A DNA stretch of 64,000 bases from an uncultured Verrucomicrobiae bacterium (GCA_963813025.1 CAWEXO010000014.1:160001-224000); one strand, 5' to 3'. Shown: positions 3,994 through 53,487, numbered from the stretch's first letter. The notes: generated from the sequence alone by a model not told the origin. Numbers and translations: made by a program.

Positions 3994-4407
3994 TCATTTC
4001 AGGAGCTTTTTGATCTCGACCGCAAGCAACTCGGCACGCTCGCGGGATTGCGACCCGAACCAGATGCAGTCGTAAAATTCCGGCAGCTTCGTACAGGCAA
4101 CACGAACATTCCTCTTTCGCGGAAGCCTGGCCACAAAGCGAATCACCCAGTACCCACGAATTAGTCCCAATTTGTTTTCTAAGTAGAGAGGATAAGTCTT
4201 GAATGCCTGTATTTTTATTACCGCTAGATTACGGTTTTCCCATTCGGCAATAGATTGAAGAATTTCGCCGACGAGTTCTTTGAGCTTAACCGCGTGTTGA
4301 TAAGATTGCTGGTCCGCAAACGCAGCGATCCAGAGAGTCGGAAACGCCAGCGAAACAACTACGAGGAGAGCAACGTTCATCCTAGTAGGGAAGATCGTCA
4401 GGGTCAC
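3994..4407 (-). CDS. Hypothetical protein
   Basis: 137 aa ORF with one hydrophobic segment; lower GC; no family recognised. Confidence 0.35.
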   Translation of the reverse strand: MTLTIFPTRMNVALLVVVSLAFPTLWIAAFADQQSYQHAVKLKELVGEILQSIAEWENRNLAVIKIQAFKTYPLYLENKLGLIRGYWVIRFVARLPRKRNVRVACTKLPEFYDCIWFGSQSRERAELLAVEIKKLLK

Positions 4408-4496
4408 ACTGCGTTCAAGTCCCGCGGCAGGGAGCTAAGGAATCCGCGAGTCAACCTGAACGAATCCGCCCCGCAACATGGCCTTGGCCCTGCTCT

Positions 4497-4615
4497 GGTA
4501 GGGCGAAAATTTATCCGAGCCATAGCGAGGACTCGTTTGAGCCGGACACTGGAGCTGCCACACCGAAGACGGCTCAAACAAGTTCTCGCCTGGTGCTCGA
4601 ATAGATTTTCGCCCT
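4497..4615. repeat. REP/REPIN-like hairpin repeat, copy A (interrupted by IS110; its ACCGG end continues at 5939)
   Basis: Long imperfect palindrome GGTAGGGCGAAAAT...TTTGAGCCG...CGGCTCAAACAAGTTCTCGC...ATTTTCGCCCT, also seen at four other loci. Confidence 0.9.
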
Positions 4616-4649
4616 TGTACCTTGCCCCACCAATTTTTTTTCCCTTTTA

Positions 4650-4860
4650 AAGCCGCCCGCAAGGGCGGAACTCTGGAGGTGAAGAACTTGGCCGAGGAGG
4701 GTGGAAAACTGCCTCGCCCAAAGGTCGGTAGAACCTGTCCGGTAGATTAGTCCACCCTTCCTCGTGCCGCACCTGCATAAGACCGTACCGTATCTTAGGC
4801 CGTTCCAAACAGGGTTGGAACATAAGCCCGTGTTCACAAGGCTCTGTCAGCAGGCGCGCG
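4650..4860 (+). ncRNA. Putative bridge RNA (5' hairpin, target-binding loop, donor-binding loop); ends approximate
   Basis: Hairpin CCGCCC-GCAA-GGGCGG at 4653-4668. Stem 4690-4705/4751-4768 encloses TCGCCC (4714-4719) and CCGGTAG (4739-4745). Stem 4772-4776/4850-4854 encloses ACCGTATCT (4787-4795) and ACAAG (4836-4840). Confidence 0.85.
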
Positions 4861-4910
4861 CCCAAGCGCTTCATCAAACAAAGAACCAATTCAACTCGAA
4901 TTCCTGTCTG

Positions 4911-5921
4911 ATGAAAAAACGCTACTGCATGGGTATTGATATGGCAAAAGCAAGCTTTGACTTTTGCCTGCTCTCCAAGAATGGCACTCGCCTGTGGCGG
5001 GGAAAGTTCAGCAATGATGCGACCGGCATTGGAGCATTTTTAGCCCAACTCCAGGCCCGCTCTTGGCCGCTCTCCCAGATCCACTTCGCCCTGGAAGCCA
5101 CCGGGGTCTACGGGAAGAGATTGATCGCCGCTCTGCACCAAGCAGGCTTGGCGGTCAGCGTGCTCAATCCCGCCCAAGTCAAATACTTTGCTTTCTCGGT
5201 CCTGCGCCGCACCAAAAATGATCGGGTTGATGCGGCCATCATTGCCCAGTTTTGTCTGGAGCGAAAACCACTGGCCACTCGGCCGCTGCGCCCCCTTGAG
5301 GAAGAATTCAAACTGCTGGTGCGGGAGCGCGAAAGCCGGGTTGGCGAGCTCATCCGGGAACAGAACCGGGTGAAAAAAGACCCTTACCCAATTGCGCTGC
5401 CCGAGCTTGTCAGCCAACAGCGTGGCCAACGACTCGCCCAGCTCAAGAAAGAAATCGCTCAGCTGGAGTCGGCCATCTTCGGCTTAGTCGCGGCTGATCA
5501 GGCTTTAAGCCGCCAAAGCCAACTGCTGTGCTCTATTCCCGGCATTGCCCAGCTCACAGCCGCCAAGCTGCTGGCCGAGCTGGCCGGTAAAGAGTTCCAA
5601 TCGGCTCGGCAGTTGGCGGCCTATGCTGGGCTGAATCCTTCTGAATTCCGTTCCGGTGTCTCGCTCTACGGCAAAACCACCCTGTGCAAAATCGGCAACG
5701 CTTTCCTGCGCAAAGCACTCTATTTGCCGGCCGCCGTTGCTCGCCGCTGGTGCAAACCCATCCAGCAATGGGCCGCAGGTCTCGAGTCGCGCAAGCTCCA
5801 CTCCCTGGCTATCCGCGGTGCCGTCATGCGAAAACTCCTGCACATCGCCTTCGGTGTTCTCGCTCACCAACAACCCTACAACCCTAACCTGGCCCGCCCT
5901 TCCTTAAAGCAATGCCCTTGA
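4911..5921 (+). CDS. IS110-family DEDD transposase / bridge recombinase
   Basis: Most likely start is ATG 4911 (MKKRYCMGIDMAK). RuvC-like GIDMAK, EATG and KNDRVDA motifs; C-terminal SIPGI, LAAYAGL.P...SG, GN..LRKALY and RKLLHI motifs. The frame is intact. Confidence 0.95.
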   Translation: MKKRYCMGIDMAKASFDFCLLSKNGTRLWRGKFSNDATGIGAFLAQLQARSWPLSQIHFALEATGVYGKRLIAALHQAGLAVSVLNPAQVKYFAFSVLRRTKNDRVDAAIIAQFCLERKPLATRPLRPLEEEFKLLVRERESRVGELIREQNRVKKDPYPIALPELVSQQRGQRLAQLKKEIAQLESAIFGLVAADQALSRQSQLLCSIPGIAQLTAAKLLAELAGKEFQSARQLAAYAGLNPSEFRSGVSLYGKTTLCKIGNAFLRKALYLPAAVARRWCKPIQQWAAGLESRKLHSLAIRGAVMRKLLHIAFGVLAHQQPYNPNLARPSLKQCP

Positions 5922-5923
5922 CA
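5918..5923 (+). promoter_or_regulatory. -35 box (TTGACA) of the IS circle-junction promoter; -10 half (TACCTT) at 4618-4623
   Basis: Perfect TTGACA overlaps the stop codon. Joining the ends through one CT gives exactly 17 nt to TACCTT (TAnnnT). Confidence 0.8.
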
Positions 5924-6029
5924 TCCAAGACCGTATCTACCGGTTGTGGGCAATCGTGGTGAGCCCGGTCAATTGTCTCGCAAACGGAGCGGGTGAGCGG
6001 TCGAACCCGGAACGACCGACTGAAGGATT

Positions 6030-6215
6030 GCGGCGCGACCTTCGTGCCGATGACCAGCTCCCGGGACTTGGGCGGCGCCGGGGTCTGGCCCCCGGCCTGC
6101 TGCGTTTGCGCGAGCACCGCGCTGCCGCAGGGCAGCGAGCTACGGATCCCAATCGACCGCACTCAACGGCGAGGCTTGGGCGCAAGTATTTGGTGGTCGG
6201 CGGCGGCGACTGACC
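6030..6215. pseudogene. Back-to-back fragments of a second SBP family 3 / GluR0-like gene
   Basis: Minus strand reads AVLAQTQ...RELVIGTKVAP (N-terminal piece). Plus strand reads ALPQGSELRIPID and is nearly identical in DNA to about 2622-2661. Confidence 0.5.
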
Positions 6216-45896: not shown

Positions 45897-46209
45897 TCGA
45901 GCTATGGTTCGAAAGGGAGGTTCGAGGGATGTCCCAAGGCGTCTTTGCTCCTGCGCCGGTAGGGCGATCCGCCTTGGCGGCCGAGCGCCAGGCGAGAACT
46001 TGTTTGGCGTGTCCGCCATAGCCTTGGCGAAGGCGGAGCCATCTGGAGCGGGTGGCTCACCCAAGGTCCGGCTCAAATAAAGAGAGTGTCTCGCTGGCGC
46101 TCGAATGAATTTTCGCCCTACCGGTCGTGGGTCAGCGGATGTTGCGAGACATTCTCTAAATTTTCGCCCTGCGCAGGATACTGCGGCATTCTGAGACGAT
46201 CTCTAGCGC
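45897..46209. repeat. Composite REP/REPIN-like repeat, copy B (core 45956-46124)
   Basis: Core CCGGTAGGGCGA...TCGCCCTACCGG; both flanks are shared with copy E. Confidence 0.9.
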
Positions 46210-51624: not shown

Positions 51625-51899
51625 GACAAACTATTGAGACCTGTGCGGCGACTGGCGTCTCGCCAGATGCTTTCTCTGCCAAAACATATAGGATCGGAAA
51701 GATTGGTCTAACGGCGATTTCGAGAGGCGAAGTCGCAGATCATTTTGCTGGGCTGGCACTTTTTCCTGCTCGGTCACGTTCCACCTGATGAGGCGCCCAA
51801 GCGATGTCTTATTCCCGACGCTACGGCATCTCCGGCTGCATCTCGAACGAGTCTTCGCCAAAGGCTCAGATAAAGAGCATGTCTAGCAACGCCCTAAAT

Positions 51900-52032
51900 C
51901 GGTAGGGCGAAAACTTGTTTGAGCCGGACCCCGAGTGGCCACCGTCCAAGACGGCTCAAACAAGTCCTCGCTTGAAGCTCCTCCTTCGCTAAAGCTTCGG
52001 CGGATACGTCGGATAAATTTTCGCCCTACCGG
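51900..52032. repeat. REP/REPIN-like hairpin repeat, copy D
   Basis: CGGTAGGGCGAAAA...TTTTCGCCCTACCGG with TTTGAGCCG/CGGCTCAAA inner stem. Confidence 0.9.
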
Positions 52033-53247: not shown

Positions 53248-53487
53248 TCGAGCTATGGTTCGGAAGAGAGGTTCGAGGGATGCGCCCCAAGGCGCCTTTG
53301 GTCCTGCGCCGGTAGGGCGAAAATTCATTTGAGCCGGACGCTTGGGTGAGCCACCCGCTCTAGATCGCTCCGCCTTCGCCAACGCTATGGCGGACACGTC
53401 AAACAAGTTCTCGCTGAGGCTCGTCCGCCAAGGCGGATCGCCCTACCGCCACAGAACAATGCGGCATTCTGAGGCGATCTCTAGCGC
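53248..53487. repeat. Composite REP/REPIN-like repeat, copy E (core 53309-53448)
   Basis: Flanks are in the same orientation as copy B; the core is the reverse complement of the copy B core. Confidence 0.9.

Follow-up and report, generated by a model that had tools for sequence, protein, structure and literature searches.

IS621 is said to have been found in the repetitive extragenic palindromic (REP) sequences of Escherichia coli by Choi and co-workers in 2003. The IS4321/IS5075 elements and the attC-targeting IS1111 elements target transposon ends or integron sites. It has long been known that IS110 elements target REPs (preprint 10.64898/2026.03.19.712850, available text), and ISPpu9, ISPpu10, ISPa11, ISPsy8, ISRm19, and ISRm22 are described as REP-specific in their insertion (Tobes and Pareja 2006, PMC1525189; PMC12288879; preprint 10.64898/2026.03.19.712850; all for the available text). 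In IS621, a bridge RNA contains a 9-nt left guide and a 4-nt right guide extendable to 7 nt, both of which take in the core (Durrant et al. 2024, PMC11208160, available text). REP targeting by IS110-family elements is already established for IS621, ISPpu9, and ISPpu10. The present analysis concerns a 64,000-nt stretch (the window) from the genome of an uncultured soil Verrucomicrobiae bacterium (GCA_963813025.1, CAWEXO010000014.1:160001-224000). An IS110-family element of 1323 bp occupies positions 4616-5938 of the window, inside the head of a palindromic repeat of about 128 bp with a GTAG tag, and the insertion point is TCGCC-CT|ACCGG. With a probability of roughly 90%, this is an IS621-like IS110 bridge recombinase with its bridge RNA, which was inserted in the repeat head by guide pairing.

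The locus is made up of the following features, given with window coordinates and with strand where one applies:

4495..4615: repeat copy A, with left head CTGGTAGGGCGAAAA, both arms, central loop, and right arm through the CT core
4614..4615, plus strand: left CT core dinucleotide, from the sequence and the 2-nt ambiguity of the empty-allele joint
4616..5938, plus strand: IS110-family element, from blastn limits identical in seven full-length copies, the junctions, and the empty allele
4911..5921, plus strand: recombinase gene (336 aa), encoding DEDD RuvC-like and Tnp domains
5937..5938, plus strand: right CT core, from the sequence and the empty-allele joint
5939..5950: remainder of the copy A head (ACCGG) and outer flank, from the sequence

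The left side of copy A ends in ...ATTTTCGCCCT at 4615, and the repeat restarts as ACCGGTTGTGGG at 5939-5950. The element starts with TGTACCTTGCC... and ends with ...GACCGTATCT at 5938. The sequences read at 4615/4616 and 5938/5939 place a CT core on both sides (4614-4615 and 5937-5938); because this core is doubled, the element could equally be written as 4614-5936. The element has no terminal inverted repeats, and only the short CT core, with no longer target duplication, is present at both junctions. The left head of copy A carries one mismatch to the target and lies on the minus strand. The inverted arms of this copy are 4500-4520/4595-4615 and 4525-4544/4570-4589, and the nhmmer arm match to copy A (C14:164567-164615) ends at profile position 50. 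The first-pass annotation had described an element that interrupts a REP-like repeat, copy A, and an uninterrupted copy B; the junction sequences at 4615/5939 agree with the former, and copy B was found as TTTTCGCCCTACCGGTCGTGGG at 46110-46131.

An allele without the element was found in a soil metagenome (run X1), possibly the sample from which the genome came. A contig of 782 nt covers 4300-4613 and resumes at 5937-6091, skipping exactly 1323 bp. The joint slides by 2 nt and reads TCGCC-CT-ACCGG, which is the empty allele that had been predicted for this locus. From three further runs (X2 to X4), only short pieces of relatives were recovered, if anything, and no claim is drawn from them.

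The protein belongs to the same family as the IS621 recombinase. The open reading frame (ORF) at 4911-5921 matches DEDD_Tnp_IS110 (PF01548, 9e-32, 110 bits) and Transposase_20 (PF02371, 1e-21, 77 bits), and it has the domain order of the IS110 group, an N-terminal DEDD RuvC-like domain and a C-terminal Tnp domain with the catalytic Ser. It aligns with the solved structure of the IS621 transposase over residues 5-327, nearly the full length (1.2e-45). The two proteins are identical in the columns GID, LEATG, D-x-VD, and SG; as the alignment reads, these probably correspond to the catalytic D11, E60, D102/D105, and S241/G242 of PMC11208158. A protein search of plasmids for IS621 gave, among the matches listed, identities of 36-41%, and none of these matches was named IS621.

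The two elements are also alike in the CT core and in a non-coding left end with two internal loops. According to the available text of PMC11208160, IS621 has similar donor ends (..GTATCT | TGTA..) and a promoter split over the joined ends, and its target (ATCAGGCCTAC) lies in a REP, with the cut within CTAC, the complement of the GTAG tag. The AU that follows the right guide resembles A81/U82 of IS621 (PMC11208158). This loop-by-loop likeness to the IS621 RNA rests on the available text of the papers and on the relatives (Hiraizumi et al. 2024, PMC11208158; PMC11208160). The differences are the Verrucomicrobial soil host with an unrelated repeat family, the right guide of 7 nt rather than 4 nt (extendable to 7), and the left guide, which effectively pairs over 6-7 nt and whose last base is unfit for the core T.

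Folding analysis showed that the 295-nt left end folds better than 200 of 200 shuffled sequences (z = -3.15). Four relatives with 49-77% protein identity, all from other Verrucomicrobial genomes, were aligned with the left end. The five sequences have in common a 5' hairpin and two loop-closing stems, and 14 of the 58 consensus pairs show a compensatory change among the five sequences. The RNA and its candidate promoter consist of these parts:

4618..4623, plus strand: TACCTT, a -10-like hexamer, 2 nt into the left end
4652..4669, plus strand: conserved 5' hairpin of the non-coding RNA (GCCGCCCG..GGGCGG), with six pairs invariant in five of five sequences
4690..4768, plus strand: target-binding loop and closing stem (4690-4705 paired with 4751-4768, compensatory changes)
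4712..4720, plus strand: left target guide CCUCGCCCA, in which 4714-4719 (UCGCCC) equals the top strand of the target left of the cut
4722..4736, plus strand: inner hairpin of the target-binding loop (AGGU CGGUAGA ACCU)
4739..4747, plus strand: right target guide CCGGUAG, in which 4739-4745 is the complement of CT-ACCGG, followed by AU at 4746-4747
4769..4857, plus strand: donor-binding loop and closing stem (4769-4776 paired with 4850-4857)
4787..4795, plus strand: left donor guide ACCGUAUCU, the same 9-mer as the last 9 nt of the element (5930-5938)
4836..4841, plus strand: putative right donor guide ACAAG, in which 4836-4840 is complementary to the CT-TGT of the left end, followed by G
5918..5923, plus strand: TTGACA, a -35-like hexamer, 15 nt from the right end; TTGACA/TTGACT lies at the same distance in relatives

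These parts suggest a mechanism like that of IS621. The element would leave as a circle, and the joining of its ends would put the right-end TTGACA 17 nt from the left-end TACCTT. This arrangement was read by eye over the joined ends only, and the same geometry is found in relatives. By analogy with IS621 (PMC11208160, available text), the two hexamers may serve as a sigma-70-type promoter only in the circular form, from which a left-end non-coding RNA of about 250 nt would be transcribed. The joined ends would be held by the donor-binding loop (ACCGUAUCU and ACAAG), and the target-binding loop (UCGCCC and CCGGUAG) would pair with both strands of TCGCC-CT-ACCGG. Strand exchange by the DEDD/Ser recombinase would take place at the CT core. 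After strand exchange, the AU behind the right target guide may fit the AT at right-end positions 6-7, and the G behind ACAAG may fit the C at target position 7, in the manner of the handshake of PMC11208158.

Comparison with the relatives showed that the right guide and the insertion site change together. In the window, the guide CCGGUAG faces the site CT-ACCGG. The corresponding pairs are ACGGUAG and CT-ACCGT in L008, CCCGGAG and CT-CCGGG in L012, CACAAAG and CT-TTGTG in L013-L018 and L022, and UAGCUAG and CT-ACCT, with one mismatch, in L004-L006 and L010. The left boundary and the left guide of L012, a single copy, could not be placed. In more remote relatives from Rhodanobacter (about 35% protein identity), the guides GCGCUCCU and ..GUAG are found with insertion at GCGCTCCT|AC, inside another GTAG repeat. 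The right guide changing with the site is the strongest support for the claim of the first-pass annotation that the element is programmed against the repeat.

Some of the relatives have surroundings of their own. The 49%-identical relatives (L013-L018, L022) lie in a different repeated context, ..CTCTGCGCCT|TTGTGGTTAATCC..CTCTGTG.., flanked on either side by short CCTCTG(C/T)GCCC-like motifs, which may be another targeted repeat family. At L006:880-905 and other loci of genome G015, a much shorter palindromic repeat has the same head as the repeat in the window (GGTAGGGCGAAAAC...GTTTTCGCCCTACC). The element copies of G015 target that short repeat with a slightly different right side, CT-ACCT.

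The target is abundant in the genome. In the 4.4-Mb assembly, the 12-mer TCGCCCTACCGG has 95 exact unoccupied sites, with about 1 expected, and 269 sites with at most one mismatch. Among the 269 sites there are 73 facing pairs less than 400 bp apart, mostly spaced by 127-129 bp. The 48 aligned units of 124-134 bp consist of two arms of about 55 nt, a variable loop, and the head CCGGTAGGGCGAAAA, which contains GTAG, the tag of REPs. An intact unit folds as DNA into a single long hairpin (-50 kcal/mol). A search of the genome with an arm profile found 290 arms; 241 of them extend to the target position, and 89 of the 241 have the perfect 12-mer. The commonest variants at the target end are ..CCGA (48), ..CCAG (25), and ..CCGC (19). 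Arm midpoints fall within stop-to-stop ORFs of at least 150 codons in 88 of 290 cases, and such ORFs make up 86% of the genome; the comparison is a crude proxy for a location between genes. In the window, four perfect and six one-mismatch sites were found, 10 in all against 0.37 expected, and none of 100 shuffled sequences reached 10. These include three intact units:

45956..46124: intact unit with two perfect empty sites, 45956-45967 (minus strand) and 46113-46124 (plus strand)
51899..52032: intact unit with a perfect empty site at 52021-52032 (plus strand) and a one-mismatch site at 51899-51910 (minus strand)
53309..53449: intact unit with a perfect empty site at 53309-53320 (minus strand) and a one-mismatch site at 53438-53449 (plus strand), which is the GATCGCCC arm variant

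The four perfect empty sites named in the first-pass annotation are thus present at 45956 (minus strand), 46113 (plus strand), 52021 (plus strand), and 53309 (minus strand).

The repeat appears to be a lineage-specific, REP-like or REPIN-like family. REPINs were reportedly described by Bertels and Rainey in 2011. The unit is palindromic, has a GTAG tag at one end, occurs in high copy number, and lies mostly outside long ORFs. It resembles the GTAG repeats and REPINs in the GTAG head CCGGTAGGGCGAAAA, in the two inverted arms with a variable spacer, and in the many copies. The difference is that no REP-associated tyrosine transposase (RAYT)-type Y1 gene flanked by heads was found among the 3 + 20 loci checked, and for this reason the repeat is named only REP-like or REPIN-like. 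The three PF01797 loci of this genome have no head within 2.5 kb. The 20 loci checked in five relatives have no flanking head pair, only one single exact head and two single one-mismatch heads. The genome is 80% complete, so a RAYT gene may have been missed. The head motif is abundant in at least nine of 24 other genomes of the same family (19 to 222 matches, controls 0-3) and is at background in 16 genomes from other families of the order. GTAG repeats have been reported in the Verrucomicrobia, in O. terrae (Di Nocera et al. 2013, PMC3733652, available text). A miniature inverted-repeat transposable element was considered and rejected: the bases outside the heads tend to continue the palindrome (e.g. 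CCTGCGCCGG...CCGGCGCAGG), and the 48 units, judged by eye, have no direct repeats. At about 12 places (C12:154452-154617, C16:85355-85514, and about 10 similar), a unit is followed by a shared stretch of about 40 nt (ATTTTGGGATGTTGCGAAAC..TCTAAATTTTCGCCCTACCG). This stretch adds a third, lone head and makes a larger composite repeat.

The blastn search of the genome identified 13 copies of the element: seven full-length copies that are 99.1-100% identical, one with an 80-bp deletion, and five degenerate copies. All 13 left junctions lie in a repeat arm (TCGCCCT| in 12, TCGCTCT| in one), and all 12 copies that retain the right end continue with ACCGG; the junctions at these 12 copies are CT|TGTACC.. 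and ..GTATCT|ACCGG. The element is tied to the repeat at every copy, which agrees with the reading of the first-pass annotation. Only 102 of the 241 empty arms have ACCGG, so its presence at 12 of 12 occupied sites is unlikely to result from random use of arms (hypergeometric p = 5e-5). The two bases before TCGCCC in the occupied sites vary (TT 6, TC 5, GT 1, GC 1), and so do the bases past ACCGG; with variable flanks on both sides, the consensus of the occupied sites is exactly the 12-mer. TTCT arms were found at five of 13 occupied sites and 11 of 95 empty ones (Fisher p = 0.024), but this enrichment was set aside because two element sub-families with different left guides are mixed and two copies share a left flank. 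The older sub-family (C15, C9:218161, C12) has CUUCGCCCA in place of the left guide CCUCGCCCA. One copy (C9:67089-69145) has both ends (1-296 and 1012-1323), with the middle replaced by about 1450 bp of other DNA.

Several observations weigh against the reading that guide pairing placed the element. The left guide matches the target over 6 of 9 nt (UCGCCC) in TTTT arms and 7 of 9 nt (CUCGCCC) in TTCT arms; the earlier statement that only 6 nt match is accurate for the former and fails for the TTCTCGCCC arm variant, where 7 nt match. The ninth base of this guide (4720) is A in the window and in the G015 copies, G in L008, and U in the more distant L013 group, and A or G cannot pair with the constant core T. 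IS621 strongly prefers pairing to both strands of the CT core (PMC11208160, available text). One mismatch lies inside the right guide of the G015 relatives, and the covariation covers only five lineages, two of which are close kin. An Rfam scan of 4400-6100 with E up to 1 found no bridge-RNA family, only a chance mir-127 match in the coding sequence. The empty-allele contig differs from the window at eight flanking positions, so it represents a close strain without the insertion and is not proof of excision in this strain. The first-pass annotation had also suggested that a left guide this short may extend targeting to GATCGCCC arms. This found no support: such arms were used by none of the 13 copies and make up eight of the 95 empty perfect sites. 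About one copy in a GATCGCCC arm would be expected by chance, so 0 of 13, from so small a sample, decides nothing about the range.

The weakness of the left guide, which is short and misses the core T, would be explained if the recombinase protein, or a cruciform of the long palindrome, chose the site and the RNA matches were coincidental or secondary. The site does lie at the foot of the hairpin of about 55 bp, and a target stem-loop adds specificity in ISPpu10 (2026 preprint 10.64898/2026.03.19.712850, available text). However, arms of the same shape that differ in the last bases (ACCGA 48, ACCAG 25, ACCGC 19) received none of the 12 insertions, and relatives with other right guides occupy matching other sites (L012, L013-L018), some without GTAG and outside this repeat. 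Site choice by the protein or the cruciform is therefore very unlikely. It is scarcely credible that the repeat and the element were copied as a block, by segmental duplication or joint mobilisation, rather than by independent insertions. Two copies (C11:733732 and C13:237820) do have an identical 45-nt left flank, but the right flanks of all 12 copies diverge past ACCGG, and the left flanks represent several repeat sub-variants with different loops. The repeat also stands intact in the empty allele of this locus, 290 arms are found with 13 element copies, and two other genomes have 148 (G007) and 91 (G008) repeat heads with no match to the left end of the element.

The element might also be a dead relic, with old copies whose pattern would be silent on present targeting. 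Five of the 13 copies are degenerate, besides the one with the 80-bp deletion. Against this, seven copies are nearly identical, with the 336-aa frame intact and the guides identical, and close strains differ in whether this locus carries the element. A dead relic is thus improbable, and these copies are consistent with an element that may be active at present. Insertion by guide pairing in the repeat head explains the locus better than these alternatives. With about 100 copies of the site, most of them outside long ORFs, the genome would offer the element many harmless landing places. The proposal of the first-pass annotation, a safe-harbour strategy parallel to that of IS621 on a different repeat family, is supported.

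Another, unrelated IS110 family (famD) uses the same repeat arm:

C4:2772-4466, C16:83661-85354, and C13:92669-94363, among 10 copies in all: famD elements of 1695 bp with a 431-aa frame, none in the window

famD inserts at TTTTCG^CCCTACCG, 4 bp upstream of the site of the IS621-like element, and its site and ends have just one base (G) in common. Putative guides in its left end, GAUUUUCG and UAGGGCA, fit the famD site. Insertion of either element would split the site of the other. What this locus adds to the established REP targeting is this second IS110 family on the same arm and a left guide without pairing to the core T. It is conceivable, though rather doubtful, that the repeat head is a contested landing pad, where guides to one and the same 15 bp of a repeat arm arose in two unrelated elements that cut 4 bp from each other, and where the left guide of the IS621-like element dropped its pairing to the second core base. 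If so, the core rule would be looser than that of IS621, and the 7-nt right guide or the cruciform might compensate for this. The extra lone head of the composite repeat is also used by both IS110 families. A third IS110 family (famE) showed no consistent association with a repeat. The genome (16 contigs) is very rich in insertion sequences, and its 40 matches to the IS110 DEDD domain fall into five or more sequence families. Some of the IS110 elements contain a nested repeated element of about 1412 bp (e.g. C14:65939-67354).

The IS621-like element can also be compared with the other site-specific elements. Like ISPpu9, ISPpu10, ISPa11, and the others, as described in the available text, it uses one fixed site in an abundant intergenic palindromic repeat and has several copies per genome. 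Those elements belong to Proteobacteria with REPs of 20-40 bp, whereas the repeat here is a near-perfect palindrome of 128 bp with the site at its outer foot. ISPpu10, according to the same sources, depends on a local stem-loop of 5 bp on the 5' side of its target; nothing obviously comparable is seen here. The IS4321/IS5075 and attC-targeting IS1111 elements are likewise DEDD elements that land in a terminal repeat of another mobile or repeated element; they differ in that, as members of the IS1111 subgroup, they have subterminal inverted repeats, carry the guide RNA at the opposite end, and use targets other than REPs. A search of the literature on Verrucomicrobia with REP or IS110 gave, among the matches listed, no Verrucomicrobial case.

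In summary, sequence and comparative analyses suggest that RNA-guided REP targeting by IS621-like elements extends from the Proteobacteria to soil Verrucomicrobia. The relatives form a small natural series of bridge RNAs that have 7-nt right guides and known cognate sites, and they include a natural case of a left guide unpaired with the core T. Such natural variants may be useful to bridge-recombinase engineers. The known mechanism is unchanged; the value lies in the annotation, which explains the pattern of repeats and elements over this genome, including one repeat arm in use by two IS110 families.

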